DNA of 64,000 nt from Candidatus Babelota bacterium (GCA_965658655.1 CBFHTA010000001.1:264722-328721), one strand, 5' to 3'; positions 5,925-38,497 are shown, numbered from the stretch's first letter. The notes: generated by a model not told the origin, from the letters alone. Numbers and translations are program-made.

Positions 5925-7445
5925 TCAAAAATTGATGAGCAATTTACCGTATACATTCCAACGAGAAATTCCTGCGTTTTGTCTCGAGGTATCAACAGAA
6001 CCACCAACTTCGTAATTTTGAGAAAATTCACCTTCGTTGAAGTAAGCAGCTGAAGCATGGAGTGTACTTAGAATAACGCTTGGATGCGCAGCAGAAACTA
6101 GATTTATGTCACTTTCTTTAATAAAGATATTAGCGTTTGCACCTAGATTTGCTAAATCAAGATTGCGCCCCATTTTACGGTTTGGCATAACTTCTCCAGG
6201 GTTTCCTGCCGGTTCAGACAAGTCTGCAATCATTGGGCCTTCTTTCCATGCGTTAACAAGTTTAACATCTTCTGCTTGGCGGAAGCGATTCATAATCCCT
6301 GCATTAATATTCCAGTTTTTCCCTACTAATGAAACTTGCGTTGCCATTCCCAAAGCAAAACCTGGATTCACCTTAACGTCTTGAGTCATAATGTTAATCC
6401 CGAAGGTTCTTCTGTATGGCACGTCAGCAGTTCCTGCAGCATTACGAGCGGTAGCATTTTCAAACATTGCCAAGTAGCGAGTCCATTGACCGTTGTATAA
6501 ATCAAGGGAGCGTTTTTGTGTGTTTTCAAAAAGATAGTGGCCAGTGAGCGAATTGGTTATCCACCAATTACATGCTTTTGCTTCATGCATGCAGTATTGA
6601 AGCGTATTACCCCAGTCAATACCTGCGTGGTGTCCGTTACCAACCATAGCTTCCCACATATATTCTGCAGTTCTGCGATTACCGGTAGGAATAATAACAC
6701 CTACATATTGGCTTACAAAAAGATCATCTTTGTCAATGGCATTGCGACCAATTCTTATTTTGAGATCAGCCATTCCATCTTTTTTTTGAGTTCCGTCGAT
6801 ACGGCCATATTTTAAACCGGGTTGTCTGAAAGCCTCAAACATATTGGTTTGTGCAAGTAACCTTCTACTTGTGCCTGTTTCGTAAAATGGATTGGCAGTA
6901 GAAGCTCTTTGGTCATCAGCATTTTGTTCAATGATTACTGTTTCTGATAGCCCGACTGATTGCTTAACGTGCACAAAAGGAGCATCAAAGTTTACCCAAT
7001 ATTTTTTGCTGAGTGGGTGGCGATAAGAGATCATAAATCCAAGGGTACTTTGTTTTGGGTCCACTGTAAGCTTAGAGTGGTGAGTGTCTCCTCTTGTTCT
7101 TACATTAAAATCCCTAGCAAGAAGATCTTGGCTTAGGTCTTCTGTGTAACTATCAGGAATATCTTCTTTTACAACAAGCTCTTTTTTGTTGTTGAACAAA
7201 AGGTATTCGCGTAGGTCTTCTCGCCCACTTTGAGTTGTTTTCCCTCCAAAGATAGAGAGAGCGAGTTCGGGCTTTTCTGCCATATGTCCTTTTTCATGCT
7301 CCTGGTTAGTAATAAGTGTATATCCTGTGGTGCTGTAGAGTTCGTAGGTGGGGAAATCAACGAATACACTTTTTCCAGAGATATTTTGTGCATGAGCACA
7401 GGAGTGGAGCAGAATAAGGGCTAAAGCATAAATGCGGTACTTCAT
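5925..7445 (-). CDS. Putative outer-membrane beta-barrel protein
   Basis: Signal peptide ending AHA, amphipathic beta-strand segments, C-terminal WNVYGKLLINF (terminal Phe). Confidence 0.7.
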   Translation of the reverse strand: MKYRIYALALILLHSCAHAQNISGKSVFVDFPTYELYSTTGYTLITNQEHEKGHMAEKPELALSIFGGKTTQSGREDLREYLLFNNKKELVVKEDIPDSYTEDLSQDLLARDFNVRTRGDTHHSKLTVDPKQSTLGFMISYRHPLSKKYWVNFDAPFVHVKQSVGLSETVIIEQNADDQRASTANPFYETGTSRRLLAQTNMFEAFRQPGLKYGRIDGTQKKDGMADLKIRIGRNAIDKDDLFVSQYVGVIIPTGNRRTAEYMWEAMVGNGHHAGIDWGNTLQYCMHEAKACNWWITNSLTGHYLFENTQKRSLDLYNGQWTRYLAMFENATARNAAGTADVPYRRTFGINIMTQDVKVNPGFALGMATQVSLVGKNWNINAGIMNRFRQAEDVKLVNAWKEGPMIADLSEPAGNPGEVMPNRKMGRNLDLANLGANANIFIKESDINLVSAAHPSVILSTLHASAAYFNEGEFSQNYEVGGSVDTSRQNAGISRWNVYGKLLINF

Positions 7446-8931: not shown

Positions 8932-9705
8932 TTATACCTGTGAACTTTTTTCTATTATTGTTCCATCTGGAGTGGTTGGAAGTACTTTGTCTTTATAAGA
9001 ATAGTATGGCATACCATTGTGTTCGGACCTTTCATATTCTTCTTTAGTATAAGGTTTTAAAAAGCCTTTTGGTATTCGGAATTCTTGTTCGCGGGCGTTA
9101 GGATGTTCTCTTGTTGTTTTAAGTTCTTTTTTTTCTCTTTGGAAGTGTTCAACATATAAGCATTTTTTTGGTATTGCTCCAGCACTAAGCAGATGTGTAA
9201 CTACTTCATCATTGTTTTGTTTATCGAAAACCATACCGAGTGGGGTGAGTATTACACCATCCTTATTTATGCTTCCGTGGTTAAGCTCAGCATTGGCTGC
9301 AATCATGACTTTAACGGTTGATGCCATTAGATTCTGACTTGCTAGTCCAAGTGGAGTGGTTTTATTTTCGTAGGTTTCTCCAGTAAAATACTGACTTTTT
9401 CTTTTTGGTCCTGTTATTCCTTTATTAGGGTCAGCATTGGCTACAATAAGCTGGTTAGCATTTTTGGGATAGTTTTCTAAGCACATTTTCCCAAGTGCGG
9501 TTATGGTTGAATCTTTCTTATACACTGCACACGCGTTAGGATTAGCATTGTTACGCAGAAGTAATTCAATGTAATGAGGATTATCACATGTTATCCCTAG
9601 TAAAGGGTTGATTTCTTCAGAGTGAACTTTTTTAACGCTATTTCCCGTAACAATTGAGTTTATAGAAAGTGATAATGCTAAGAGTAGTGTTAATTTTTGA
9701 TGCAT
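8932..9705 (-). CDS. Secreted ankyrin-repeat protein
   Basis: Signal peptide; TALG/TPLG..A...LL..NA.PN repeats. Confidence 0.8.
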   Translation of the reverse strand: MHQKLTLLLALSLSINSIVTGNSVKKVHSEEINPLLGITCDNPHYIELLLRNNANPNACAVYKKDSTITALGKMCLENYPKNANQLIVANADPNKGITGPKRKSQYFTGETYENKTTPLGLASQNLMASTVKVMIAANAELNHGSINKDGVILTPLGMVFDKQNNDEVVTHLLSAGAIPKKCLYVEHFQREKKELKTTREHPNAREQEFRIPKGFLKPYTKEEYERSEHNGMPYYSYKDKVLPTTPDGTIIEKSSQV

Positions 9706-10986: not shown

Positions 10987-11420
10987 TCCTGTCCTCAAAA
11001 GCGTTACGGTATAATATTGTACAAAACCAGTATGCGGGTAAGAATACCACATCATTTTTGAGCTCGCAACTTGGCAAAGATTTATTAAAATACTATTTTC
11101 TGTCTTTAAAGGTCCTGGCTAGAGCTTAATCATCATTGATTTGAGCAGCTGGTTTAGGTGATTGTTTTGATTCAACAGGAAGAATCTCTCCAATATAGAG
11201 TTATCTTTATTTCTAAATTACCTTTTTTTGAAGTTTCTAGCATTTTAAAAATTATCTTGAAAGTGGTCAATAAAACTGTACAGAGCGTACCACGTCATTC
11301 AATAGCTTGTAATAAGAGTAAGAGCTATCAAAATTAGCTTGAGTCTGGTATTTTCGATAAAGAAGTGACACATTCATCGGTAAGCATAAGCTTATGGTAT
11401 TGGGTAAGACGGAGAAAAGT

Positions 11421-13130
11421 ATGGTAAATAAAACATTAGGTCAGCTGTTAGTTGAGAGCGGAGCAATTACGGAGGAACAAGCAAGAAAGTTCCAAGAAGA
11501 GGCTCAAAAAGCACACATTCCTTTTGCGCGTTATCTGTATGACAAACACTTGGTAGCAGAAGAATCTATTGCTCAAGCCTATGCAACTATGACTGGTCTT
11601 ACCTTTCTTAACGATATAACAGACGAAATGGCAGATCCGCTTTTATTAGCAAAGGTACCTCTTAAGTTTTTGCGCGAGAACAGAGTGATTCCTATTAAAG
11701 ATAAAGGCACTTCTCTAGTTACCGCTAACCCTACAGACTTTTCTCCTGTTGATGAACTTCAATTACTTTTTGGTAATGATGTAAAGATTGTAATCTCTAC
11801 TCCCAAATCTATTCTTGATGCCCTTAATCATTATTATCCGCTTGAGGGTACCGACGAAATGATGGAAGATCTGGAGAAAGACGGTGATGCAGCAGATCTC
11901 TCTTTTGCAGACATTGACGAGAAAGACATTTTAAGTAGTGCCAACGATGCGCCTATTATTAAATTAGTTAACTATATTCTTTTTCAAGCAGATAAAATGA
12001 ATGCATCTGATGTGCACGTTGAACCTGGAGAGAAAGAAATTAGAATACGTTTTAGAGTTGACGGCCGCATGCACCAATTCATGACAGTTCCTAAAAGAAT
12101 GGAGGGCGCTGTTGCTTCTCGTATTAAAATTATGTCGAATTTAAACATTGCAGAAAAACGTAAACCTCAAGATGGGCGTATTGAAATTCGTATTGGTGAC
12201 AAACGTATTGATCTTCGTGTTTCTTTTTTACCAGCGGTATATGGAGAAAGCGTTGTTATGCGTCTACTTGATAAAGACAAAGGGTTTTCTGAGTTAGACA
12301 ATCTTGGTTTAAGTAAGCGAGACTACGAAGTAGTTACCCAAAGCATTGCTCGACCTAACGGAATATTCTTGGTGTCTGGGCCAACCGGTTCTGGTAAAAC
12401 TACCACGCTGTATTCTATCTTGAGTCGCATTAATGTTCCTACGGTTAATGTTATTACGGTAGAAAACCCGGTTGAGTATCAGTTGCCTGGTATTACACAA
12501 GTACAAGTAGACCCTAAAGTAGACTTAACCTTTGCCAGCGCGCTTCGTGCAATTTTACGTCAAGATCCAGACATTGTAATGATTGGTGAAACACGAGACC
12601 AAGAGACAGCACAGATTGCTATTCAAGCAGCATTAACTGGTCATTTAGTGTTAACAACCATTCATACTAACGATGCTCCTTCTATTATCACTCGTTTAAT
12701 AGACATGGGCATTGAACCGTTTTTAATTGCCTCTTCTATTGTTGCTGGTATGGCGCAACGTTTGGTTCGTAAACTCGACCCTGCATGTAAAGAAGCATAC
12801 AAACCATCAGAAGAAGTACTTAAAAGTTTAGGCATGGATCCGGCAAAGAACAAAAACGTTACCTTCTACCGACCAAAAGGGTGCAAGGAATGTAATATGA
12901 TGGGGTATAAAGGTCGGCTTCCAATCTTTGAAGTTATGGACCTGACAGACTCTATCGCAGATCTTACTATGGCCCGAGCAGCTACACTTAAAATTAGGCA
13001 GCAGGCACAAAGAGATGGTATGACCACATTGCTTGATGATGGTATTAAGAAAATAAAAGAAGGCTTGACGAGTGTAGAAGAGGTTGTTTCTGTAGCAACT
13101 GTTTTTGATAATCCCGCAGATTCTGAATAA
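11421..13130 (+). CDS. Type II secretion / type IV pilus assembly ATPase (GspE/PilB family)
   Basis: ASDVHVEP, R.PQDGRI, Walker A GPTGSGKTTT, LRQDPDIVMIGETRD, TGHLVLTTIHTND; likely start MVNK after GGAGA. Confidence 0.95.
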   Translation: MVNKTLGQLLVESGAITEEQARKFQEEAQKAHIPFARYLYDKHLVAEESIAQAYATMTGLTFLNDITDEMADPLLLAKVPLKFLRENRVIPIKDKGTSLVTANPTDFSPVDELQLLFGNDVKIVISTPKSILDALNHYYPLEGTDEMMEDLEKDGDAADLSFADIDEKDILSSANDAPIIKLVNYILFQADKMNASDVHVEPGEKEIRIRFRVDGRMHQFMTVPKRMEGAVASRIKIMSNLNIAEKRKPQDGRIEIRIGDKRIDLRVSFLPAVYGESVVMRLLDKDKGFSELDNLGLSKRDYEVVTQSIARPNGIFLVSGPTGSGKTTTLYSILSRINVPTVNVITVENPVEYQLPGITQVQVDPKVDLTFASALRAILRQDPDIVMIGETRDQETAQIAIQAALTGHLVLTTIHTNDAPSIITRLIDMGIEPFLIASSIVAGMAQRLVRKLDPACKEAYKPSEEVLKSLGMDPAKNKNVTFYRPKGCKECNMMGYKGRLPIFEVMDLTDSIADLTMARAATLKIRQQAQRDGMTTLLDDGIKKIKEGLTSVEEVVSVATVFDNPADSE

Positions 13131-13267: not shown

Positions 13268-14416
13268 TTAATTAGATTGATCGATATGGCGTGATTCTTC
13301 AGCAGCTGCAGCAGCAGGACCGGTTGAAGATTCCTCTTCATCTTTACTTTCATAGGGATAAATGAATGTATCGAGTTTTTGATTTATGTTCTCTGTACCG
13401 CATGAAGGGCATCTTAGAGGGCCTCGGTTGTTACTTTTCCATGTTGTAAATGCATCTTCTCCTACAAAGTTAAGGCAACAGCTTAGATAGTGTAAAGATT
13501 GGTCTTTTTTAAAAGACTCTAACATAATAGGACACGTGGATTGTTCTTTAATAGTATGTTGTTTGAGGATTGTTTTGATCTGATCGTTCCTTGTAAGTTG
13601 GTATGCATTTCTTCTTTTAAGATCAACTCTTTTATAGGGTGCTCCATTTTCTAGCAAAAATTTTACAATGGTATGCTTTCCGGCATAGCAGGTTAATCCA
13701 AGAGGTGTTGTTTTTGTTCCATCAGGAGATGTTGCACCATCTTTGATATCGGCTCCGTTTTCTAGTAAAAATTTTGCAACAGTATGGTTGCCATTATAGC
13801 AGGCTAATCCAAAAGGTGTTATTTTTGTTCCATTAGCATATGTTGTACCATCTTTGATATCGGCTCCGTTTTCTAGTAAGAATTTTGCAATATCATACTT
13901 ACCTTGAGAAGAGGCTAATCCAAAAGGTGTTGTTTTTGTTTTATCAGGAGATGTTTCACCGTTTGTGATATCTGCACTATGTGTTAATAATAAACCTACA
14001 ATTTCTAGTTTGTTGTTTCGTATTGCTATGCTAAGAGGGCTTGTTATCATTCCATTCTTATAAATAGAACCTGTTTCTAGATTAACTCTGTTTTTTAATA
14101 GAATGCTTACTATCTTAGAATGACCATAACGGCATGCTTCAGCAAGAGGCGTTGTTTGTTCATCTTCACTAATAAAAGTTGGTTCATTAATTGGTGTTTT
14201 CTCTTTTATTAATTTTTCTACAGTATCTATATTTCCTGATTGACAAGCTGTTACCAGTGATTTTAAGGCAAAATCTTTATCAATTTTTATTGATGCAGCT
14301 TCTTGATTACTGTTCTCTCTAGAAAGTTCACTTTTTTTATCATCAGGATTTCCTGTAAAAATAGACCCTGCATGTAAAAGAGCAAAAGAAAGGAATAGTA
14401 GTTTTTTGGTTTTCAT
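13268..14416 (-). CDS. Secreted ankyrin-repeat protein with C-terminal U-box/RING-like domain (paralog 1)
   Basis: Signal peptide; five ~37-aa ANK repeats; CPIMLESF..LSCC.NF..W..CPSC. Confidence 0.85.
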   Translation of the reverse strand: MKTKKLLFLSFALLHAGSIFTGNPDDKKSELSRENSNQEAASIKIDKDFALKSLVTACQSGNIDTVEKLIKEKTPINEPTFISEDEQTTPLAEACRYGHSKIVSILLKNRVNLETGSIYKNGMITSPLSIAIRNNKLEIVGLLLTHSADITNGETSPDKTKTTPFGLASSQGKYDIAKFLLENGADIKDGTTYANGTKITPFGLACYNGNHTVAKFLLENGADIKDGATSPDGTKTTPLGLTCYAGKHTIVKFLLENGAPYKRVDLKRRNAYQLTRNDQIKTILKQHTIKEQSTCPIMLESFKKDQSLHYLSCCLNFVGEDAFTTWKSNNRGPLRCPSCGTENINQKLDTFIYPYESKDEEESSTGPAAAAAEESRHIDQSN

Positions 14417-14460
14417 CTTGTATCTCCATTTTAATACTATATCATAAATTTATAATTCTA

Positions 14461-14488
14461 ATTGTAATATATTTAGCATATTTGTCAA
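14461..14488 (-). promoter_or_regulatory. Sigma70-like promoter of paralog 1
   Basis: TTGACA-N16-TACAAT on the minus strand. Confidence 0.6.
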
Positions 14489-14578
14489 TCGGCTATTTAA
14501 GCTTAAATAATACGTTTAGGGAAGTTTTGGTTGCAGAGTAAAGAATTGGCTTTGAGCTTAAGTGAGCTTGTTTAGCTA

Positions 14579-15862
14579 TCAGTGCTCTTTGAGATCTGAG
14601 GATTCTTCTTCATCTTTACTTTCATAGGGATAAATGAATGTATCGAGTTCTTGATTTATGTTTTCTGTACCGCATGAAGGGCAGCTTAGAGGGCCTTGGT
14701 TGTTACTTTTCCATGTTGTAAATGTATCTTCTCCTACCCAGTCAGAGAATTCTTCAGCGCCTGTAAAGTTAGAACAGCAATTTAGAAAGTGTAATTCTTC
14801 GTCTTTTTCAAAAGAAGATAAACGAATAGGGCATGTGGATTGTTCTTGAATAGCACGTTTTTTAATGAGTTCTCTAATTTGGTTCTTATTAATTTTTTGA
14901 TCTTCACTATCTAGTTGATATGAATGAGCTACTTGATATGCATTACGGTCTTTAGATGTAACTCTCTTAAAAGAAACTCTTGGGTCATCAAGTAATGTTT
15001 TTACAGTATCAACATAACCCTCTTCAGAGGCAAGACTAAGCGCGGTCACTTGTTTTCCGTTAGGATAAGCATAAGCAAAAGCATTAGGTTCAATTCTTTG
15101 ATTAGTAAGTAATGCTTGTACCGTAGCGGTACGGCCGTTATAAGAGGCAAGGCCAAGTGCGGTTATTCCTACTCCAGAAGTATTGATAAACTGATAAGCT
15201 GTGGCGTTAATTCTTTTGTCACCAAGGAGTGCTTTTGTAGCATCAGTATGGCCGTTTTGACAAGCAAATCCAAGAGCCGTCGCTTGTGCTCCATTAGGAT
15301 TCATATGCTGATACATTGTGGGGTCAACTCTTTTGTCACCAAGGAGTGCTTTTGCAATATCAGTATGGCCTTTTTCACAAGCTAAACTAAGTGCGGTCAG
15401 TTTTTTTCCTTTAGGATGAGCATAAGCAAAAGCATTAGGTTCAATTCTTTTGTCATCAAGGAGTGCTTTTGCAATATTAGTATGGCCTTTTTTGGTAGCA
15501 AGGCCAAGTGCGGTCATTTGTACCCCACTAGGATAAGTAAACTGAAAAGCATTAGGTTCAATTCTTTTATCAGCAAGTAGTGTTTTTACAGTGCTCATAT
15601 AGCCTTCTTGAGTAGCAATGCCAAGCGCAGATATGTGTATTCCATCAGGTTCCGTTATTAATATATTGGGATCAAAGTCAAAAGACCCATTAAGTAGGCT
15701 TTGTATAGCTTTTATATCCTGGTTTTTACAGGCTTCAATAAACTTTATTTGATTGTGCATAGTTGATTTATCTGCACTTCCTGCATAAGAGTTATTGTCA
15801 CTTGTAAAAATACAACCTGTGTACACCAAAGATAATCCAAAAAGAAGTAAGTTTTTATTCAT
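14579..15862 (-). CDS. Secreted ankyrin-repeat protein with C-terminal U-box/RING-like domain (paralog 2, mosaic)
   Basis: Signal peptide; six 39-aa ANK repeats; CPIRLSSF..LNCCSNF..W..W..CPSC. Confidence 0.85.
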   Translation of the reverse strand: MNKNLLLFGLSLVYTGCIFTSDNNSYAGSADKSTMHNQIKFIEACKNQDIKAIQSLLNGSFDFDPNILITEPDGIHISALGIATQEGYMSTVKTLLADKRIEPNAFQFTYPSGVQMTALGLATKKGHTNIAKALLDDKRIEPNAFAYAHPKGKKLTALSLACEKGHTDIAKALLGDKRVDPTMYQHMNPNGAQATALGFACQNGHTDATKALLGDKRINATAYQFINTSGVGITALGLASYNGRTATVQALLTNQRIEPNAFAYAYPNGKQVTALSLASEEGYVDTVKTLLDDPRVSFKRVTSKDRNAYQVAHSYQLDSEDQKINKNQIRELIKKRAIQEQSTCPIRLSSFEKDEELHFLNCCSNFTGAEEFSDWVGEDTFTTWKSNNQGPLSCPSCGTENINQELDTFIYPYESKDEEESSDLKEH

Positions 15863-15868
15863 TATAAC

Positions 15869-15946
15869 CTTTATTAATATGATATTATTTTGTGTGATAA
15901 CATTTTTAATTTAGTTATCACACAAAATAATATCATATTAATAAAG
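15869..15946. repeat. Perfect 33-bp inverted repeat with 12-nt spacer
   Basis: ctttattaatatgatattattttgtgtgataac (15869-15901) is the exact reverse complement of 15914-15946. Confidence 0.97.
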
Positions 15947-15962
15947 ATAAAAAAGTTTCAGA

Positions 15963-18071
15963 TTAATCAATATCCATAACTGGCTCATCATCCATAACTG
16001 GCTCACCTGAGGATTCTTCTTCATCTTTACTTTCATAAGGATAAATGAATGTATCGAGTTCTGTTGGTATGTTTGGTTTTTGGCATGCAGGGCAAATGAC
16101 AGTACCATGATATCGCATTCTTTGTCCTACCCAGTCAGAGAATCCTGCAGTGCCTGTAAAGTTAGAACAGCAATTTAGAAAGTGTAATTCTTCGTCTTTT
16201 TCAAAAGGCGCTAAAGTAATAGGATCTTCGGATTGTTCTTGAATAGCACGTTTTTTAATAAGTTCTTTGATTTGATTTTTATTAACTTTTTGATCTTCAC
16301 TAGTTGCTGGATATGCATTAGCTATTTTGTATGCATTATGTCCTGCAGATGTAACTCTCTTAAAAGAAACTCTTGGGTCATCAAGTAATGCTTTTATAGT
16401 ATTAATATGACCATTTATAGAGGCAATACCAAGTGCAGAAAACTGCCTTCCGTCATCGCCCTTCATCGCAACAGCATTAGGTTCAACTCTTGGGTCAGCA
16501 AGTAACGCTTGTGCCAGAGCAGCACGATCATAACGAGCAGCAAGGCCAAGTGCAGTGGTTTGTGATCCATTAGGAAAAGTAGCCTGAAAACCATTAGGTT
16601 CAACTCTTGGGTCAGCAAGTAACGATTTTATAGTATTAATATTACCATTTATAGAGGCAAGACCAAGTGCAGAAAAATCCCTTCCTTTATCGTCCTTAAT
16701 CGCACAAGCATTAGGCTCAACTTTTGGGTCAGCAAGTAACGCTTGTGCCAGAGCAGCACGGTCATAACGAGCAGCAAGGCCAAGTGCAGTGATTTGTGAT
16801 CCATCAGGAAAAGTAGCCTGAAAACCATTAGGTTCAACTCTTTCATCAGCAAGTAATGCTTGTGCCGAAGCGGTCTGGTTTGCGATAGAAGCAGCTCCAA
16901 GTGGGGTGACTTCTGCTTTATATTTTGTCTGCGCAACAGCATTAGGTTTAATTCTTTCATCAGCAAGTAATGCTTTTACCGTATTAATATGACCATTTTG
17001 AGAGGCAATAGAAAGTGCTGTATGCCTTGTTCCTTGAGGATCAATAATTAAAGAATTGGGGTTAGTTCTTTCATCAGCAAGGAGTGCTTTTACCGTATTA
17101 ATATGACCATTTTGAGAGGCAAGGCCAAGTGCCGTATGCCTTCTTCCTTGAGGATCAATAAAGGACAAAGAATTGGGGTTAGTTCTTTCATCAGCAAGGA
17201 GTGCTTTTACAGTAGCAACATGACCTTTTTTAACAGCAAGGCCAAGTGCCGTATGCCTTTTTCCTTGAGGATCAATAAAGGAAAAAACATTGGGGTTAGT
17301 TCTTTCATCAGCAAGGAGTGCTGTTACAGTATCTGTATCACCTTTTATAGAGGCAATGCCAAGTGCCGCCTGTTTTCTTCCATTAGAAGCAATTCCGGAA
17401 ACAGCATTAGGGTCAATTCTTGGGTGAGCAAGGAGTGCTGTTACAGTATCTGTATCACCTTCTATAGAGGCAATGCTAAGTGCTGCATGTTTTGTTCCGT
17501 TAGGATCAATAAAGGAAAAGGCGTTAGGGTCAATTCTTCGGTCAGCAAGGAGTGCTTGTACAGTAGCAGTACGCCGATTTTGACAGGCAATACCGAGTGC
17601 ATTACATTGTGATTGGTTTTTATCAAGATATTGATAAGCGTTAGGGTCAATTCTTCGGTCAGCAAGGAGTGCTTGTACAGTAGCAGTATGGCCATTTTGA
17701 GAGGCAACACCGAGTGCGGTAAGCTGTGTTCCATTAGGATGAATAGATTGATAAACTGTAGGGTCAATTCTTGGGTGCTTAAGGAGTGCTTGTACAGTCG
17801 CAGTATGGCCGTGACGAGAGGCCACACCAAGCCCAGACACTTGTATTCCATCAGGTTCCATTATTAACATATTGGGATCAAAGTCAAAAGACCCATTGAG
17901 TAAGCTTTGTAGAGCTTTTATATCCTGGTTTTTACAGGCTTCAATAAACTTTATTTGATTGTGCATAGTTGATTCATCTGCACTTCCTGCATAAGGGTTA
18001 TTGTCACTTGTAAAAATACAACCTGTATACACCAAAGATAACCCAAGAAAAAGTAGGCTTTTAACTTTCAT
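15963..18071 (-). CDS. Secreted ankyrin-repeat protein with C-terminal U-box/RING-like domain (paralog 3)
   Basis: Signal peptide; about 13 ANK repeats of 39 aa (117-bp DNA period); DPITLAPF..LNCCSNF..W..CPAC; likely start MKVK after GGAGA. Confidence 0.85.
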   Translation of the reverse strand: MKVKSLLFLGLSLVYTGCIFTSDNNPYAGSADESTMHNQIKFIEACKNQDIKALQSLLNGSFDFDPNMLIMEPDGIQVSGLGVASRHGHTATVQALLKHPRIDPTVYQSIHPNGTQLTALGVASQNGHTATVQALLADRRIDPNAYQYLDKNQSQCNALGIACQNRRTATVQALLADRRIDPNAFSFIDPNGTKHAALSIASIEGDTDTVTALLAHPRIDPNAVSGIASNGRKQAALGIASIKGDTDTVTALLADERTNPNVFSFIDPQGKRHTALGLAVKKGHVATVKALLADERTNPNSLSFIDPQGRRHTALGLASQNGHINTVKALLADERTNPNSLIIDPQGTRHTALSIASQNGHINTVKALLADERIKPNAVAQTKYKAEVTPLGAASIANQTASAQALLADERVEPNGFQATFPDGSQITALGLAARYDRAALAQALLADPKVEPNACAIKDDKGRDFSALGLASINGNINTIKSLLADPRVEPNGFQATFPNGSQTTALGLAARYDRAALAQALLADPRVEPNAVAMKGDDGRQFSALGIASINGHINTIKALLDDPRVSFKRVTSAGHNAYKIANAYPATSEDQKVNKNQIKELIKKRAIQEQSEDPITLAPFEKDEELHFLNCCSNFTGTAGFSDWVGQRMRYHGTVICPACQKPNIPTELDTFIYPYESKDEEESSGEPVMDDEPVMDID

Positions 18072-18108
18072 TTTGATCTCCATTTTAAATATTTTTATTA
18101 TAATTCTA

Positions 18109-18138
18109 ATTGTAAATAAGCGATATGGTCGTTGTCAA
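18109..18138 (-). promoter_or_regulatory. Sigma70-like promoter of paralog 3
   Basis: TTGACA-N18-TACAAT; downstream leader TTACAATTAGAATTATA shared with paralog 1. Confidence 0.6.
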
Positions 18139-18172
18139 CAGTATATGTACATTAAGCATTGTGCAAAGGTGC

Positions 18173-18225
18173 TTTTATAAAGAGATAAGCTTAAAAAATT
18201 ATTTTTAGTTTATCTCTTTATAAAA
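18173..18225. repeat. 16-bp perfect inverted repeat in divergent intergenic region
   Basis: ttttataaagagataa ... ttatctctttataaaa. Confidence 0.85.
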
Positions 18226-18335
18226 TTTATAATTGTAGCCTTTAAGGCTCAGGCCTTTTTTATCTATTTTTATCTTTTTCTCTGGCCGAGAGAATGTTTT
18301 TTCGATAAGCTCTAGGCATCATAAAGGGTCCCTTC

Positions 18336-21056
18336 ATGCGTAATTTTCGTTTACTGTCAAAAATAGTTTTATCTCTTTTTCTAGGTCTTTTCTTGGCTTT
18401 GGCATGGTTTCAATTTGATGAACGATTTATTGCGCTCGCAAATAGTGGTATGGAAAAAGTTTTTGAAAAACAGTTGAATTGTCAATTTAAAGGAAAGGTG
18501 GTTCGAGTAAATCCGTTTTTATTAACCATTCATTTTGAAGATGTACAAGTAGAACCTTTTGATATGAGTAATAACTGGTCTTGGAGTGTTGCTCAAATGA
18601 CCATGAAGCTTTCATTTCTTGAGTATCTTTACTACGGTGCTTTTGGGCTACACGTAAATCTTACAACATTGCATTCCTTCTCTGGGCTCAAAAAAAATGG
18701 TGTTCCTATGGTAAGCGATCATTTGCTAGATCTTTTTGCAGGAGCTAACTTTAGTGTGCCCATTTCATTTCAAACAGTTGCAATTGTTGATGGTTCGTTA
18801 CTTGTTGACGATGTTGATAGAAAAGTTTCATTCATATGTCATTGGAATAGTAATGCAGGGAAAGCGGGCAGAGATTTTAAGTCTAAGTTTTATCTTTCAG
18901 ATACCTCTTTAACGTTAGATAATAAAAAAATATTTGAGCAATTTAGTGGACAAATAACATTTGATGCTTTGCATGGCAATGCGTTTATTAGGATGGCAAC
19001 CGATGCTATGTTTATGTTGCCGCAGTTACCAGAAGATCAACGAGATTGTTACGTTCTTGGTTCTTGGGATAAGAATGCAGGAAGCTTTGTGGTTTACAAT
19101 CAAGATAGAACATTGTCCTTTGTTCCTATTGAATTGGTGATGGGTAAAAAGGGTCTGTTGGTGAATGCTGAAGGGGTGATTTTATTAGAATATTTAAAGC
19201 GATTTTTTTATCCGCATATATCACAAACACTTAAGGGCATGGGTTACTTAAAAGTTTCTGGAGATCTTAACGGATCGTTGCAGACAAAAGTGCGTATGCA
19301 AGATGTGGGTTATGGTAGTTATTTGTTAGATGAATTGTATGGTGATGTAATGCATGTTTCTTCTGAATGGCGTGGCTCAATTGGTGCCACTAAAAATAAT
19401 GCTGCAGTAACTGGTACATGGTGGTGGTCTGATAGTGTTAAACAGGGAGTAGTACAATTGGTTAATAGAAATACCTTACCTTTTTTAACAAGTACTTATT
19501 GGCAGACTTTGCCAGGAAGAACTGCGCTGCAGATTGTATTTAAAAACGATGGTAATGGTAAATTAGAGTATGTTACACAGCTTGCGCATAAAAAAACTGA
19601 GCATACTGTAAACAGTTCAGGTACGGTGACACATACGAATACCACCATTAAATGTAGCGGATCAGTGGGAGACAACACTTATACAGCAACGGTAAATACC
19701 AAGCCGATGTGGCTAAAGTCATTTATATATGCCAATGGTGCCAAGAAGAAATTGATCACTTTAACTACTAATAAACAAAATAAATTTTCTTTGTCTTTTG
19801 ATTATGATGCTGCCCAAATGTTTGCGCTTGATTGGTTAGATCTTGATCTATATGGGCAAGGAGTTTTTGATGTTTCAGGTTGTATGGAATTTCCTAAATT
19901 TGTGGGAACACTTTCCTTTAAGAATGGAACTATTCGTCCAGCAGGGATGTATAATTTTATCTCAGATATTACAGCTCGATTTATTGGTGATGTTAATAAA
20001 AAAGAATGTAGTATAAAAGATACACTTATTACACTTCATCAAGGGAAAATAGTAAGTGACAAAATTTCCTGCTTCTTTAACGATGATGGTTCAGTTTATG
20101 GATTGCATAGTCCATTTAGGTTTGAAAGTTGTTTTTTAAATTGGAGTAAATACTTATACGCTATTTGTACCGGGAGCTTTGTGCTTCAAGTTGGATCGGG
20201 GGTAGAGAATGCTCTTGATGGATTCCTTGTGTTTGAACGTTCACAATTTAAAGAAAATATCTTTGCTCTTCAGACACAAAAAAGTGCAATTAACGCTTTA
20301 CCAAGACAACATGCTTTAAGTTCTTTATCTTTAAACCTTGGAGTATCTACGCAGGCTCCTTTACTTGTGTCTACACCTCATTTACAAACACAGGCAATTT
20401 TAGATTGGTTTTTAACTGGAAAATTAGGTGCTCCAGAGTTGCAAGGATCATTGCAATTAAAAGGTGGAAAACTGGTATTTCCTGGACAAACATTGGCTAT
20501 TTCTCAAGGTAAGCTTACGTTTGCTCCTACGCATTCTGAAGATCCTCTTCTTGATTTAACAGCACAAGCGCGTATTAAAAAATATTTGGTAACCATGAAT
20601 ATTGGTGGAACCATTAAAGAACCGGAAGTTCTTTTACAAGCAACACCAGGGCTTTCTGAAGAGCAAATTATTATGTTACTACTGACGGGAAGTGAGCAAG
20701 AATCTTTTAATATTATGGTTCCATCGCTGGTTATGCGTAACCTAGAAACTATTCTTTTTGGTCCATCAAAAGCGTTGGGCCATGCTTCGAACACGCTTTC
20801 CTCTTGGTTAAAGCCTTTAGAAAAAGTAACGTTTGTACCTCGATTTAATGATCAAACAGGAACGGGAGGCTTTAAGGGAGTGCTTGAGGTAGAAGTAAGT
20901 AAGCGATTGCGCGCAGTTCTGGAGAAAGACTTTAGTTTGGCAGAAGATACTGCGGCAGAAATAGAGTATCTTGCTTCCGATGATGTAAGTTTTAAAGTTA
21001 ATAGAGATGAGCGTGGCGATATTGGCGCTGAGGTAGAGATGCGATTTAAATTTTAA
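18336..21056 (+). CDS. tamB: Translocation/assembly module TamB-like protein
   Basis: N-terminal membrane anchor, long beta-rich body, C-terminal DP.LD..A....Y.V...I.GT...P...L...P.LSEEQI..LL.TG and GAEVEMRFKF. Confidence 0.8.
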   Translation: MRNFRLLSKIVLSLFLGLFLALAWFQFDERFIALANSGMEKVFEKQLNCQFKGKVVRVNPFLLTIHFEDVQVEPFDMSNNWSWSVAQMTMKLSFLEYLYYGAFGLHVNLTTLHSFSGLKKNGVPMVSDHLLDLFAGANFSVPISFQTVAIVDGSLLVDDVDRKVSFICHWNSNAGKAGRDFKSKFYLSDTSLTLDNKKIFEQFSGQITFDALHGNAFIRMATDAMFMLPQLPEDQRDCYVLGSWDKNAGSFVVYNQDRTLSFVPIELVMGKKGLLVNAEGVILLEYLKRFFYPHISQTLKGMGYLKVSGDLNGSLQTKVRMQDVGYGSYLLDELYGDVMHVSSEWRGSIGATKNNAAVTGTWWWSDSVKQGVVQLVNRNTLPFLTSTYWQTLPGRTALQIVFKNDGNGKLEYVTQLAHKKTEHTVNSSGTVTHTNTTIKCSGSVGDNTYTATVNTKPMWLKSFIYANGAKKKLITLTTNKQNKFSLSFDYDAAQMFALDWLDLDLYGQGVFDVSGCMEFPKFVGTLSFKNGTIRPAGMYNFISDITARFIGDVNKKECSIKDTLITLHQGKIVSDKISCFFNDDGSVYGLHSPFRFESCFLNWSKYLYAICTGSFVLQVGSGVENALDGFLVFERSQFKENIFALQTQKSAINALPRQHALSSLSLNLGVSTQAPLLVSTPHLQTQAILDWFLTGKLGAPELQGSLQLKGGKLVFPGQTLAISQGKLTFAPTHSEDPLLDLTAQARIKKYLVTMNIGGTIKEPEVLLQATPGLSEEQIIMLLLTGSEQESFNIMVPSLVMRNLETILFGPSKALGHASNTLSSWLKPLEKVTFVPRFNDQTGTGGFKGVLEVEVSKRLRAVLEKDFSLAEDTAAEIEYLASDDVSFKVNRDERGDIGAEVEMRFKF

Positions 21057-34403: not shown

Positions 34404-36179
34404 TTATTCTCCTGGAGGGCTTAGAATTCCTAAGCTTTTATTTTGTATTTTTACTATTTCTGCGTATGTTTTCATTTTTACCGGAGTAGTGAGCGATAAA
34501 TTTTTTCTTAGAATTCTCTTTAGCTGCTCTTTGGTTGCACCATTAATTAAAGTAGTTTTGTCAGCTCCTGAAGGCATTGCATTAACTAAACCTGAATTAG
34601 CAAGCTTAATAAGACCATTTACTGTAATAGCATCGAAAGCACACCAAGGAATACTGGTTAATGCAGTGCTGTTTTCAAGGTAAATATCACCAGTAATTTG
34701 CATATTGTAAAAGGCAAGAGGTTCGATTTCAGTAAGGGCAGTATTATTGTCTATGCGTAAATCATTTCCTACAGTAGCTCCTTTAAAGAGTTTATTTGTG
34801 ACCTTTGTAATGTTTGTGTTGTCTATTCTTAAATCGTTACTTACGGTAGCAGACTTAAAAGCTTCTTGTTTGAGAGAAGTAATAGCGGTGTTGTCTAGTC
34901 GAATATCTCCAGTTGTGGACTGTTCAGAGAAAAAATCAGTAATAATAGCATCATCCACCGAAGTTAGACTTGTATTTCCAGTTAAGCTTATTGTTCCACC
35001 AATAGTTCCTCCGCTAAATGCTGTAGCGCTAAGGCTTGTAAGATTTGTATTGCTTTGCATTTGTAGATCACCTGTTACTGTAATCCTATTAAAAGCACTT
35101 GCGGCAATAGTCGTAAGGTTGCTGTTGTTATTAAGTTGTAAATTTCCAGAGACAGTTAATCCACTAAAGGCATTTGCCCCAATAGTTGTGATTCCAAGAT
35201 TATTTAATAAAAGATTCCCTCCTACAGTTAATCCATTAAGAGCATCAGTAGGAATACTCGTAAGAGAAGTATTGCCATCTAGTCGTAAATTGCCTGTAAG
35301 CGAAAGTCCACTAAATGCATCAGTCGAAATAGTAGTAATACCAGTATTATCTTGAAGTTCGAGATTTTCTAGGTTTGGAAATGTTGCAAAAATATCTGCA
35401 GGTATACTCGTTAAGTCGGTATTGCCACCGAGTTTAAGCGTGGTTATTGCAGATTTGTCTATTCCGTCAAGTGATCCATCGAGTCCTGTAAGTTCTTCAA
35501 GGACGCTTTGACCAGCAGCAATGAGTGTAGACCCTGATAAATCGAGTGTTGTGCCACTATCTTGCAAGTAAGTAGCGCTGCTTAAATCTACAGCTGCAGC
35601 AAGTGTAGTAACAGTTTGGGTGCCAGATGTAGAATCAAAAAGAGCTATTCTCGGATAGTCTCGTGCTGTAGCATCATAATACGATGTCCAATTGTCATCA
35701 CTTCCTCCATAAGCTTCTAGAGTTTTTTTAATGTTCCAACTTCCAGAAGCAGTTACCTCTGTTGAGCTGGTTCTTGTATAGTAATGATTTGCTATATTAA
35801 TCGTGGGTCTTATCTCAATCCAATAAGTTCCAGTAGATGGAATTGTTATTGATCCTGTATAGGTTGCGAGCCCTCCATCTCTAGAGTCATAAGCTAAAAC
35901 ACTTCCTAGGTCTGTTCCTACCGTGCCTGCAGAATCTGTGTGTATTCGTATTTCCGTATATTGAATATAGGTAGTTGAAGAAGCGGAGTGTTGGACCTGG
36001 GCACTTGTTATTGTAGTTGCTGATCCTGCTGTAAACTGGTGGGCGTAACGAACATTTCCTCTGATTAGCAAAGTAGAGTTTTGAGCTTCATCAATATTAC
36101 TTAAAAGTGTTATACCTAAAAGGTTTATTGGTAGAATAAATAAAAATGTTAGTAACCTTATATAATGGTTAATTTTCAT
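34404..36179 (-). CDS. Secreted BspA-like leucine-rich-repeat protein with N-terminal beta domain (LRR-1)
   Basis: Signal peptide MKINHYIRLLTFLFILPINLLG; ~25-aa repeats LRLDGNTSLTSIP..AF.GLTV.G. Confidence 0.88.
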   Translation of the reverse strand: MKINHYIRLLTFLFILPINLLGITLLSNIDEAQNSTLLIRGNVRYAHQFTAGSATTITSAQVQHSASSTTYIQYTEIRIHTDSAGTVGTDLGSVLAYDSRDGGLATYTGSITIPSTGTYWIEIRPTINIANHYYTRTSSTEVTASGSWNIKKTLEAYGGSDDNWTSYYDATARDYPRIALFDSTSGTQTVTTLAAAVDLSSATYLQDSGTTLDLSGSTLIAAGQSVLEELTGLDGSLDGIDKSAITTLKLGGNTDLTSIPADIFATFPNLENLELQDNTGITTISTDAFSGLSLTGNLRLDGNTSLTSIPTDALNGLTVGGNLLLNNLGITTIGANAFSGLTVSGNLQLNNNSNLTTIAASAFNRITVTGDLQMQSNTNLTSLSATAFSGGTIGGTISLTGNTSLTSVDDAIITDFFSEQSTTGDIRLDNTAITSLKQEAFKSATVSNDLRIDNTNITKVTNKLFKGATVGNDLRIDNNTALTEIEPLAFYNMQITGDIYLENSTALTSIPWCAFDAITVNGLIKLANSGLVNAMPSGADKTTLINGATKEQLKRILRKNLSLTTPVKMKTYAEIVKIQNKSLGILSPPGE

Positions 36180-36280
36180 ATGTTTTCCTTTTTCTATAAA
36201 GAAAAATGTCAATTTAAAAAAGAAGTATTTAACGGTTTGCTTTCTTAGTAGATATTTTGGTGCAGTTGTTTTTGCATTTT

Positions 36281-38497
36281 TTATCCTGCAGCTCCTAAAC
36301 TTTTATTCTGTAATTTTAAAATTTCAGCATACTCTTTCAGCTTTACTGGAGCTGCAAGTGAAGGATTTTTCCTTAAAATTGCTTTGATTTGTTCTTTGGT
36401 TGCGCCATTGGTTAAGGTTGTTTTATCTGCTCCTGCAGTCATTGCATTTACAAGACCAGAGTTAGCAAGTTTGATAATGCCGTTTACCGCTACAGCATCA
36501 AAAGCACACCAAGGGATTCGGGTTAAGGCAGTGGTGTTTTCTAAGTCAATGTCTCCTGTAACTTGCATATTATAAAAGGCTTTCGGTTCTATTTCTGTCA
36601 ATGCTGCGTTAGAAGCTAAAGATAACTCATTGCCTACAATAGTGTCCTTGAATGTTTCGTTAGAAAGTTTTGTGATACCCGTACTATCCATTCTTAAATT
36701 GTTAGTTATGTTAGCTTTTTGAAAAGCAGTAATAGGAACCGTAGTGAGTGCAGCATTATTGTCTACTCTTAAGTCATTGCTTACTAGTGTCTCTTTGAAT
36801 GCACTTTCTTCTAGATTTGTTAATCCTGTGCTATCTAAGCGGATATCTCCTGTGATAGATATTCCCTTAAAGAAAGTATTTAAAATAGTACTGGGTATTG
36901 TCTCTAAAGAGCTGTTTCCTGTTAAACTTAAACTACCCGTAAGGTTTACTCCTTCAAATGCATTTTCGTTAAGGGTGGTTAACGCGGTGTTTCCTGTTAC
37001 TTCTAAATCTCCAGTGACGGTAAGACCGTTAAACGCATTTTCGCCAATGCTCGTTAAAGAGGCATTATTATTTATTTTTACATTTCCAGAGACCGTTGCT
37101 CCATTGAAAGCATTTTCAGATAATGAGGTAAGCCCTGTATTTTGTACTTCTAAGTCAGTATTAATGGTGGTAGTTTCAAAACCGTTGGTTGGTAGCGTGG
37201 CTAATGCAGAGTTATCGTCTAGACATAATGTTCCAAAAGTTGCGCCATTAAAAGCATTTGTAGCGATAGTTTCTAAAGCAGTGTTCCCATCAAGGCGTGT
37301 GGTGCCTGTGACTTCAATTCCATTAAAAGCATTTTCTGGAAGTGTTGTGAGGCCAGTATTACCATTAAGTTGTAAGTTTCCGCCTACTGTTAGTCCATTA
37401 AAGGTGTTTGCAGGAATTGTTGTAAGAGCAGTGTTGCCATCAATGCGTAAATTTCCTGTTATTGTTAATCCCGTAAAGGCTCCAGAAGCAATTGTTGTAA
37501 GAGAAGTATTGCTATCAATGCGTAATGTTCCCGAAACAGTAAGTCCATTCAAGCCGTTTTCTGGGAGTGTTGTTAAACTTGTATTCGCATCTAAACGTAA
37601 ATCGGTAACCGTTAAATTATTAAATGCATCTGCTGTAATAGTTGTTAATCCAGTATTTCCATGGAGCTCTAATGTTTCTAAATGAGTAAAAGTGGCAAAT
37701 ATGTCTGCAGGAATGGTCGTTAAACTTGTATTTCCGCCAAGTTTAAGAGTGGTAACTGCTGTTTTATCAATGCCATCAAGAGATCCATCTAATCCTGTTA
37801 ACTCTTCAAGAGCATTTTGACCTTGATCGCTTATTGTAGAACCAGAAAGATCAAGCGTGGTTCCATTGTCAGTAAGCCACGGAGAAGCACTTAAATCGAC
37901 AGCTGCAGCTAGAGTGGTTATGGTTTGGGTGTCTGGAACAACATTACTTGTACCTTGTAATGAAAATTTTGGATATTGGTAAGGGGTTCCTGTAAAATAG
38001 TTCCAAGTGCTTGAGTCACTTCCACTTGCTATTTTATCTTTTTTAACTGTCCATCCTTCGGCGCTCCCTGTGGCAGAAGTAGAAGCTGTTGTTGTGTAGT
38101 AATGATTTGCAATTGCTGCTGTTGGATAAATTTCGAACCAGTAGGTTCCTGCAGCTGGTATTTCTACTTCACCGCTGTATGTTATGACATTGCTTCCATC
38201 AATTGACACATAAGAAAGTGTCCCTAAGAGCGATCCGACTGTGTCGTCTGAGTCGCTATGAATTCTAATGGCTGTTGAGGAAGGGTATTTTTGTGCCCCA
38301 GAAACTTGGCTCTGTGCGGTTGTGATAGTTGCAGCGCTTCCTGCTGTAAATTGATGAGCGTAACGAACATTGCTTCGTACTATCCAAGAGGTGGTTTGTC
38401 CTGTTGTTTCATTCATGTTGGTAAAAAGTGTTTCACACTAAAGTTGTTGAAACACAAAGAGCATGCTTAAAGATAGTAAACTTTTCCAGGGCTTCAT
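36281..38497 (-). pseudogene. Paralogous LRR protein (LRR-2) with in-frame TAG inside its signal peptide
   Basis: AAGGAG RBS and ATG at 38497 give MKPWKSLLSLSMLFVFQQL*CETLFTNMNETT, in frame with the intact 711-aa ORF 36281..38416. Confidence 0.75.

Follow-up and report, generated by a model that had tools for sequence, protein, structure and literature searches.

Three tandem ankyrin proteins share a RING-like C-terminal module

The window analysed here is a 64,000-nucleotide stretch from a Candidatus Babelota bacterium (GCA_965658655.1, CBFHTA010000001.1:264722-328721). It contains three open reading frames (ORFs) of 382, 427 and 706 residues, lying in the same orientation on the minus strand and referred to as paralogs 1 to 3 (Table 1). 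The source genome (928,713 bases in 4 contigs) belongs to the Babeliales (Dependentiae/TM6), an order with genomes of 0.7-1.9 Mb. Dependentiae are widespread protist parasites of which few have been cultured, and to our knowledge little more is on record about their effectors than that they are signal-peptide-bearing ankyrin proteins. Each of the three proteins combines a signal-like N-terminus and an ankyrin array with a C-terminal module that appears to be a RING finger without zinc site 1 (Zn1). We read them as Sec-exported effectors that act as ankyrin-bearing, Zn1-less RING E3 ubiquitin ligases, and give this reading a probability of roughly 0.55. The three would probably belong to a kind of ubiquitin-ligase effector that is already suspected in other bacteria associated with amoebae.

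An earlier reading made from the sequence alone (the sequence-only reading) had described three co-oriented paralogs with signal-like N-termini, about 5, 6 and 13 ankyrin repeats, a common C-terminal pattern and an identical tail. ORF calls, Pfam scans, repeat counts and alignment bear this out. The span given there ended at 18071. In the third ORF this position corresponds to a second in-frame Met (MKVKS...), which would yield a 702-residue alternative; the full ORF reaches 18083. Pfam Ank_2 scored 108.5, 99.7 and 197.5 bits, above its cut-off and in tandem in all three proteins. Motif counts gave the 5, 6 and 13 repeats at periods of 37, 39 and 39 residues (two off-register regular-expression matches were dropped for paralog 3), and Tandem Repeats Finder (TRF) returned matching periods of 111 and 117 nt on the DNA. 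Note that these periods exceed the usual 33 residues, the surplus falling within the segment ..P.G...T.

The N-termini of all three proteins carry 2-4 Lys, after which comes a hydrophobic core of 12 residues (mean Kyte-Doolittle hydropathy 1.87-2.02). A hydropathy scan of the three proteins detected no further hydrophobic 19-mer. This composition suggests signal-peptide-like N-termini and, by extension, export through Sec.

Table 1. Features of the ankyrin-RING locus and its flanks, in window positions.
Feature	Position	Strand	Composition	Evidence
Paralog 1, 382 residues	13268..14416	-	Signal-like N-terminus, 5 ankyrin repeats (37-residue period), Zn1-less RING module, acidic tail	ORF listing; Pfam Ank_2 E 2.5e-31; zf-RING_2 16.8 bits
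Paralog 1, signal-like N-terminal segment	14351..14416	-	MKTKKLLFLSFALLHAGSIFTG	Maximum 12-residue hydropathy 1.98
Paralog 1, ankyrin array	13631..14269	-		Pfam; 111-nt TRF period; motif count
Paralog 1, C-terminal module	13325..13585	-	N-flanking helix, degenerate RING (C295, CC313-314, C336-x2-C339), tail strand	zf-RING_2 20.1 bits, E 8.1e-4; AlphaFold2; hhalign
Paralog 1, invariant tail	13325..13375	-	LDTFIYPYESKDEEESS	Alignments
Paralog 2, 427 residues	14579..15862	-	Signal-like N-terminus with Cys17, 6 ankyrin repeats (39-residue period), RING module, tail	ORF; Pfam Ank_2 E 1.5e-28; motif count
Paralog 2, ankyrin array	14963-15733	-
Paralog 2, C-terminal module including tail	14597..14905	-		zf-RING_2 11.8 bits
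Paralog 2, tail	14597-14647	-
Paralog 3, 706 residues	15963..18083	-	Signal-like N-terminus (Cys22), 13 ankyrin repeats, RING module (ligand 1 is Asp), tail	ORF; Pfam Ank_2 E 4.4e-59; motif count
Paralog 3, ankyrin array	16344-17939	-
Paralog 3, C-terminal module including tail	16008..16277	-		zf-RING_2 14.6 bits
Paralog 3, tail	16008-16058	-
Flank: GspE/PilB-type secretion ATPase	11394..13130	+		Pfam T2SSE E 8.2e-135
Flank: TamB-like protein	18336..21056	+		Pfam TamB E 1.1e-23
Divergent intergenic region, paralog 3/TamB-like	18084..18335	.
Candidate sigma-70-like site	18138-18109	-	TTGACA-18-TACAAT	Within 18084..18335

The module lacks the ligands of one zinc site

The three proteins have in common the pattern (C/D)PI.L..F..D..LH.L.CC.NF..G...F..W...CP.C, followed by the invariant 17 residues of the tail. 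For the comparison we used six family members: the three paralogs and two metagenomic proteins, P0005 and P0006 (together the five degenerate sequences), and the homolog of G007, a genome of the same family. In the numbering of the 105-residue module fragment (window 13271-13585; adding 277 gives paralog 1 residues), the five degenerate sequences are invariant at P19, L22, F25, K27, L31, H32, L34, C36, C37 and F40, and further at F46, W49, C59, C62, Y76, P77, E79 and E83-85.

Zinc ligand positions were assigned in the hhalign and MAFFT registers. Ligand 1 is Cys, Cys and Asp in the three window proteins, Ser in both P0005 and P0006, and Cys in G007. Ligand 2 is Met, Arg, Thr, Ser and Ser in the five degenerate sequences and Cys in G007; ligand 5 is aliphatic or Thr, and ligand 6 is Ala, Glu or Gly. 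Read from these four columns, Zn1 appears to be gone in five of the six family sequences, and the three window proteins fall outside the definition of a RING by eight cross-brace Cys/His ligands. At zinc site 2 (Zn2), C3 and C7-x2-C8 are kept in all six. Thus, the absence of ligands 2, 5 and 6 beside a retained CC and CxxC, on which the sequence-only reading had based a single-zinc variant, recurs in the alignments. Its ligand count has to be extended: ligand 1 is likewise non-conserved (C, C, D, S, S), and the first Cys of its pattern is not a conserved ligand because both P0005 and P0006 have Ser there.

The H4 column holds Cys in P0005 and P0006 (which read CCC) and Leu or Ser in the window proteins. 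Because of these Leu and Ser residues, the fourth Zn2 ligand of the window proteins would be noncanonical, either the Cys adjacent to C3 or another residue, for example the invariant His four residues upstream.

In RING E3 ligases generally, an Ile in loop 1, a Trp in the central helix and a Pro in loop 2 contact the ubiquitin-conjugating enzyme (E2). As had been proposed, the residues aligned with these positions are retained in all three proteins: Ile two residues after ligand 1, the central-helix Trp, and Pro after ligand 7. In P0006 the first of these is Leu and the last is Met. The core of the tail is also kept in P0005 and P0006, as Y-P-[FY]-E followed by Glu-Glu-Glu. We considered the tail as a general export or sorting signal and rejected this, because no other ORF in the genome carries it; a profile including the tail gave no other significant ORF among 4865.

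The module descends from conventional RING fingers

The top non-ankyrin Pfam match of the module was zf-RING_2, over the correct region. We compared a profile of the five degenerate sequences, with G007 left out, to 30 Babeliales RING domains that had been chosen by Pfam score and not by likeness to the query. hhalign aligned the two over 55 columns with a probability of 89.9% (E 1.7e-6), in a register in which C3, the helix Trp and CP.C coincide. Against 18 RINGs picked by the family's own profile, and hence a biased set, the probability was 96.7% (E 3.7e-10). The canonical Babeliales RINGs and the window family share the motifs CPI.L..F and CP.C. A single-sequence search of the PDB returned TRIM RINGs at E 0.16-1.5. 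In the ESM Atlas the named neighbours were giant-virus RING fingers, with scores of 0.80-0.84 that, being below 0.9, serve as a lead only.

The U-box family (PF04564) had no match at E <= 0.1 genome-wide and none for the module at E <= 10; zf-MIZ (PF02891) had none at E <= 1 genome-wide, and neither zf-MIZ nor zf-Nse (PF11789) matched the module at E <= 10. Because of the profile link to RING-H2/HC fingers and the lack of U-box, zf-MIZ and zf-Nse matches in these scans, we file the module as a degenerate conventional RING by descent, neither U-box nor SP-RING. The description "U-box/SP-RING-like" in the sequence-only reading thus holds insofar as the module is RING-related by profile comparison and model fold; membership of either family is contradicted by the Pfam scans. 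The CPI motif resembles what we take to be the U-box motif. A U-box has neither zinc site; in the window family, by contrast, CC and CxxC never vary. As far as the alignment goes, the likeness to SP-RINGs is limited to which zinc site survives.

Predicted fold of the module

The module was modelled with AlphaFold2 (AF2) from an alignment of 25 rows. Six of these were the family members, 18 were canonical RINGs of Babeliales, and the remaining one was a Zn1-less relative from another family. The model had a mean predicted local distance difference test score (pLDDT) of 83.7, rising to ~90 over module residues 11-80, and a predicted template-modelling score (pTM) of 0.64. It shows an N-terminal helix, two short strands, a central helix bearing the Trp, and an extra strand formed by DTFI of the tail (pLDDT ~89). 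The tail may therefore brace a fold that lacks Zn1, possibly substituting for the linchpin residue as well.

All 50 rows listed by Foldseek were RING, U-box or SP-RING entries, with probabilities of 0.8-1.0 and Pirh2 as the best match (E 9.7e-3). VIA-align was used twice, for re-scoring the Foldseek list and in an independent pass over 48,161 representative chains. Its top matches were the RINGs of Slx1 (Z 7.1; root-mean-square deviation 2.4-2.5 over 73 residues), TRIM69 (Z 7.0) and TRIM25 (Z 6.8-7.0). U-box 1 of LubX followed at Z 6.4, and the SP-RINGs of Mms21 and NSE2 at 6.1 and 5.7. Judged by title, the 50 VIA-align rows shown are apparently all RING, U-box, SP-RING or PHD-type, some titles naming only large complexes. 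Dimeric TRIM and Ring1b are among the fold matches. The U-boxes of LubX, CHIP and Ufd2 (Z 6.1-6.4) lie within 1 of the RING matches, and at this level of fold score the model does not distinguish RING, U-box and SP-RING. The proposal that the last ~90 residues form a RING-like domain is thus consistent with the fold comparison, in which a confident model matches entries of the RING/U-box/SP-RING class only, among the rows listed.

A family confined to one small clade

The source genome encodes exactly three copies of the module (three of three scored candidates, E 2e-67 to 7e-37). A further match in it (C3:114824-115009) proved to be an out-of-frame ORF within a larger gene. Among 261 genomes of the order, the full module turned up in no family but that of the window, namely in G001, a genome of the same genus, and in G007. 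A word-indexed search of 5.8 billion protein clusters recovered only the window's own protein among 18 candidates; with a profile and longer lengths, P0006 was the one protein found besides the window's own in 8000 scored candidates. HMMER, run on 1.84 billion representatives, gave 7 proteins at E <= 0.001. Three of these are real relatives (the own protein, P0005 and P0006), and P0007-P0010 match part of the profile only, two of them just the acidic tail. Metagenome contigs contained 0 relatives among 589 pattern matches, and genome contigs gave one locus, identical to that of G007.

P0005 has 178 residues; P0006 has 347 and combines a signal-like N-terminus, ankyrin repeats and the module. 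Over the module, both share 43-45% identity with paralog 1, and they keep P, L, F, K, LH.L, CC, F, F..W and C..C. BLASTP aligns the G007 protein with paralog 1 across the full module (E 1e-13, 33% over 116 residues). In contrast to the others, its module has eight ligand-capable residues, CxxC...CC....H..C...CxxC, and scores 20.3 bits with zf-RING_2. On these searches, the family is confined to one small Babeliales clade and the two metagenomic proteins.

The G007 homolog is split (L004:1297-2966, minus strand) into a 424-residue ORF with signal and ankyrin repeats and a 140-residue ORF with the module. The two overlap at 1692-1719; joined, they give a single ankyrin repeat interrupted by a one-base frameshift that may be an assembly error or mark a pseudogene. 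The protein ends in ...DDEL, which resembles what we presume to be an endoplasmic-reticulum retention signal and could occur by chance.

In G021, a genome from another family of the order, L005:1240-1761 encodes a 173-residue signal-peptide protein with a Zn1-less RING of seemingly independent origin (CPITL...CRH...CPIC) that scores 24.7 bits with zf-RING_2 and 24.3 bits with zf-RING_UBOX, each just under the cut-off. Zn1 may have been lost more than once in Babeliales. Other candidates were discarded. Six loci with weak single-sequence matches (L006-L011), scanned for ORFs with C..C or CP.C, gave no RING-like module and are explained by an isoleucyl-tRNA synthetase-like ORF and others. Among family-profile matches, L029, L035 and L036 contain stop codons, and L032, L034 and L037 are not RING-like.

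Variable arrays, a constant module and gene conversion

Amino-acid identity between the paralogs is 0.55-0.74 in the module and 0.33-0.49 in the ankyrin regions, in agreement with the earlier view of variable ankyrin arrays joined to a constant module. Synonymous divergence (dS) is 0.24-0.67 in the module compared with 0.43-1.32 in the ankyrin regions, and the tail is nearly identical among the paralogs at the nucleotide level. Paralog 2 shows a break within the module. The 5' part has a nucleotide identity of 0.87 to paralog 3 and 0.71 to paralog 1, whereas the 3' part has 0.95 to paralog 1 and 0.75 to paralog 3. At the junction, a 27-nt segment (a 9-residue insertion) duplicates the F..W helix motif, and the N-terminus of the protein resembles that of paralog 3. 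By these comparisons paralog 2 is evidently a mosaic or recombinant of paralog 3-like and paralog 1-like parts. Given the low module dS, the near-identical tail and the mosaic structure of paralog 2, gene conversion would explain part of the constancy of the module between copies, alongside selection. P0005 and P0006, as distant relatives, appear to be better evidence of constraint than the paralogs.

Paralog 3 contains a 234-nt duplication of two repeats in its last part (16368-16856), with 91% identity.

A genus-level insertion between conserved genes

We compared the region upstream of the TamB gene in eight genomes from other genera of the same family. GspE lies near TamB, with HisRS and BamD beyond, in seven of these; the eighth gave zero matches. 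The gap between GspE and TamB is within ~150 nt in five genomes and 1.1-1.4 kb in two. None of the eight has anything similar to the ankyrin proteins upstream of TamB. An ankyrin gene divergent from TamB is present in the one genome of the same genus, where it includes the beginning of the module before the contig breaks off. Since the other genera keep GspE and TamB without an ankyrin gene and the same-genus genome has one, the trio is, judged by gene order, a genus-level insertion with tandem expansion within a conserved GspE-TamB block. GspE is adjacent because of that insertion, and we rejected the adjacency as evidence that the trio is functionally tied to type II secretion.

RING fingers across Babeliales

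Canonical zf-RING_2 proteins also occur in the source genome. There are three, all with signal-like N-termini: one bears leucine-rich repeats (LRRs), another combines an ankyrin-like stretch (by eye) with a RING at its C-terminus, and the last ends in a hydrophobic stretch that by eye would span the membrane. zf-RING_2 exceeded its cut-off in 61 of 121 sampled Babeliales genomes and in none of 14 control genomes; the number of matches at E <= 1e-5 reached 12 in one Babeliales genome. Among the 30 best-scoring Babeliales RING proteins, 25 have a hydrophobic N-terminus; at E <= 1e-8, ankyrin repeats were found in 5 of the 30, and LRR, pentapeptide, Sel1 and beta-propeller repeats in one each. 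The layout of signal peptide, repeat domain and RING thus seems common in Babeliales, and on the strength of this commonness we regard the window trio as a worn-down branch of it.

Babela is described as having one RING finger protein and 126 ankyrin proteins, 79 of them with signal peptides (PMC4378268). For Babela and Chromulinavorax, signal peptides are described on most of the ankyrin proteins, which were taken as secreted effectors (PMC4378268, PMC6561590), a status that both sources also infer. The terms RING and U-box have zero occurrences in the Chromulinavorax and TM6 comparative papers, and among the Dependentiae papers listed in a search on ubiquitin no further one treats RINGs in its title or abstract.

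Proposed activity and alternatives

In the reading that we prefer, Sec would export the three proteins, and they would then get into the cytoplasm of their protist host, where the ankyrin array would bind a host target protein and the RING-like module would dock a ubiquitin-charged host E2 via the loop-1 Ile, helix Trp and loop-2 Pro, so that the protein would act as a single-chain E3 ubiquitin ligase. The aromatic and acidic tail would pack on the module as an extra strand, either stabilising the Zn1-less fold or replacing the linchpin Arg. We infer export, host delivery, zinc stoichiometry, E2 binding and catalysis; an amoeba as the host is a guess from the phylum. The structural side of the sequence-only reading is largely right as judged from alignments and model, and ligase function is a candidate activity.

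Several results weigh against this reading. At the level of sequence, all three modules score below the zf-RING_2 cut-off of 27.3 bits (20.1, 11.8 and 14.6; a genome-wide scan gave 20.6 and 15.1 bits for window proteins). Against the three canonical RINGs of the source genome alone, hhalign returned a probability of 1.3% (E 0.04), and a search with the five-sequence profile missed these RINGs (E 2.1 and 3.5). A profile search of the PDB carries no weight, because the RING of MEKK1 (E 0.0039) and irrelevant T-cell receptor chains (E 0.0057) rank together. As to structure, AF2 run on the three paralogs alone was unusable (pLDDT 48.2), and Foldseek gave no match at E <= 0.001. The RING cross-brace fold is supported but unproven, because a Z of ~7 is in the range that VIA-align itself rates middling, and because 18 of the 25 model rows are canonical RINGs found by the family profile, so that the alignment partly steers the fold.

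Other adverse points concern activity and localization. In the hhalign register, Zn2 of the window proteins consists of three canonical ligands and an adjacent Cys, an unusual geometry. The linchpin Arg/Lys after the last Cys is absent. The residue after ligand 8, described as the linchpin position (PMC10873205), is Gly, Gly and Gln in the window and Gly, Gly, Gln, Gln, Ser or Asn across the six family members, whereas most canonical Babeliales RINGs have Arg or Lys. Paralog 2 carries its 9-residue insertion within the E2-contact helix, and the ratio of nonsynonymous to synonymous divergence (dN/dS) between the paralog modules is 0.49-0.79. We know of no route from the periplasm to the host cytoplasm for this phylum. 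Finally, two of the three proteins, paralogs 2 and 3, could be lipoproteins, because they have a Cys just after the hydrophobic core.

Some of these features would also be expected if the RING-derived module were a pseudo-ligase or adaptor, a non-catalytic handle for binding, for sequestering E2 or for stabilising ankyrin effectors. The linchpin is missing from six of six family members, the zinc site that shapes the E2-binding loop (Zn1) is lost, an insertion interrupts the central helix in paralog 2, the dN/dS values would reflect relaxed constraint, and Pfam RING scores stay under the cut-off. We nevertheless consider such a handle rather unlikely, if the most serious of the alternatives. 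Ile/Leu, Trp, Pro/Met and the four Zn2 Cys are kept between sequences that are 43-45% identical, and active one-zinc, linchpin-less E3s exist, namely the UBR4 hemiRING as described in PMC10873205 and the SP-RINGs.

The trio might also stay in the cell envelope as periplasmic or surface lipoproteins, with the Cys-rich module serving a structural or redox role. The Cys past the hydrophobic core, present in paralogs 2 and 3 and in two relatives, is in line with this, as is the presence of LspA and Lgt, which the source genome encodes along with two secretins and T2SS-F. Measured against what we take to be the lipobox pattern, the Cys context of paralogs 2 and 3 misses at one position; P0006 and the G007 protein fit that presumed pattern by our own reading. 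The trio also lies among envelope genes (BamD-like, GspE and TamB). In contrast, the N-terminal segment of paralog 1 has zero Cys and hence no lipobox, and other genera have the envelope genes adjacent without the trio, arguing for insertion and not an operon. Moreover, ankyrin plus RING is a eukaryote-directed combination, and signal-peptide ankyrin proteins of cultured Dependentiae are read as secreted effectors, by inference, in PMC4378268 and PMC6561590. An envelope role therefore appears improbable.

Still less probable is an E3 for SUMO (small ubiquitin-like modifier) or another ubiquitin-like protein, recruiting host Ubc9~SUMO in the manner of Siz/PIAS or Nse2: the distal zinc site alone is kept, as in the SP-RING pattern given in PMC10873205, the SP-RINGs of Mms21 and NSE2 reach Z 6.1 and 5.7 compared with 7.1 for the best match, and Babela is reported to encode Ulp1-like desumoylase homologs (PMC4378268), but the zf-MIZ and zf-Nse scans were negative as given above, profile comparison points to descent from RING-H2/HC fingers, and the Simkania study (PMC12591485) likewise judged a Zn1-less RING picked up by an SP-RING profile not to be an SP-RING.

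Returning to the preferred reading of ubiquitin-ligase effectors, a bolder version would make the family a distinct bacterial E3 type. It would be a Zn1-less RING that relies for fold and activity on a C-terminal strand and the tail EL[DN]..YP[FY]E with its Glu run; the tail would contact donor ubiquitin in place of a linchpin, as the diglycine motif of the UZI subdomain does in UBR4, and delivery would follow a Sec-dependent route rather than the type III or IV secretion of the bacterial RING and U-box effectors compared below. We regard this combination as clearly unlikely. If it were true, Dependentiae would export many RING ligases on ankyrin, LRR, Sel1 and pentapeptide scaffolds via an undescribed effector route.

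The two secretin-domain proteins (882 and 917 residues) are encoded close together at G000:C1:179820-184721, and T2SS-F at C1:234773-235747. These genes amount to a considerable commitment to outer-membrane export or a pilus for a genome of 0.93 Mb.

Relation to known RING-type proteins

One close comparison is with canonical Babeliales RINGs, among them ankyrin-plus-RING forms such as L103, L019 and L039, which come from the same order, show the same signal-repeat-RING layout and are homologous by profile-profile comparison. The canonical proteins have all eight ligands, score above the Pfam cut-off and mostly carry Arg or Lys after the last Cys, whereas the window family has lost Zn1 and the linchpin and gained the LDTFIYPYE-acidic tail. 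The SP-RINGs (Siz/PIAS, Nse2/Mms21) resemble the window module in holding one distal zinc (ligands 3, 4, 7 and 8), a ligand pattern that for the module comes from alignment only. The module differs from them in giving no zf-MIZ or zf-Nse match and in its conventional RING origin, and there is no evidence for SUMO. In plants, the XB3-family ligases reportedly have the same ankyrin-then-RING order, a likeness in layout.

Zn1 loss has a precedent in Simkania negevensis. Beside SneRING, an active bacterial RING E3, PMC12591485 describes degenerate Zn1-less RINGs in SNE_A19470 and SNE_A08690; E3 activity is reported there for SneRING and not for the degenerate pair. SNE_A19470 was picked up by an SP-RING profile, yet judged there not to be an SP-RING, and its best structural neighbour was given as the TRIM69 RING (6YXE), TRIM69 being rank 2 for the window module. 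The Simkania proteins belong to a different phylum and lack the conserved aromatic and acidic tail, and the likeness is one of description. The word "ankyrin" has 0 occurrences in that paper.

UBR4 offers the reverse case. According to PMC10873205, its hemiRING, a RING relative with one zinc, is active as an E3 although it has no functional linchpin, and an element outside the RING assists it. The hemiRING keeps the proximal zinc and replaces the distal site by hydrogen bonds, the opposite of the window family, and it requires the large helical UZI subdomain.

LubX/LegU2 of Legionella is a bacterial RING-type module acting inside a eukaryotic host, and U-box 1 of LubX is among the fold matches listed above. 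LubX is named as a type IV secretion substrate in PMC12591485, whereas the window proteins carry Sec-type N-termini. The NEX1b expansions of Parachlamydiaceae described in PMC4209131 are, like the trio, tandem, protist-associated combinations of repeats with F-box, BTB or RING/U-box domains. Unlike in the trio, the RING/U-box is N-terminal there and joined to LRRs.

As far as these sources go, expansions of repeat and ubiquitin-related domains in protist-dwelling bacteria (PMC4209131) and the Zn1-less state in Simkania (PMC12591485) were already known. New here is the family itself, in which ankyrin repeats of long period are combined with a RING lacking Zn1 and with a conserved tail of aromatic and acidic residues. 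The locus gives three signal-peptide ankyrin proteins a testable biochemical role. It also catches a RING finger losing a zinc site within one small clade, in which one relative has eight ligand-capable residues and the others four or five. If active, the module would be a bacterial one-zinc E3 beside the SP-RING and hemiRING examples from eukaryotes and would raise the question of how Sec-exported ligases enter the host cytoplasm. If inactive, it would be a decaying effector domain retained as a handle.

Other features of the window

The candidate sigma-70-like site upstream of paralog 3 is a candidate promoter only, as counts of promoter-like sites in 18084..18335 are not above those in shuffled sequence (20 compared with 18.2). 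Three ORFs of the window had no Pfam family at E <= 1e-5: 5925-7445 (506 residues), 8932-9705 (257 residues) and 51174-53372 (732 residues). Adjacent LRR_8 and BspA-type LRR_5 proteins of 602 and 711 residues are encoded on the minus strand at 34404-36212 and 36281-38416. Together they form another tandem pair of possible host-interaction proteins.

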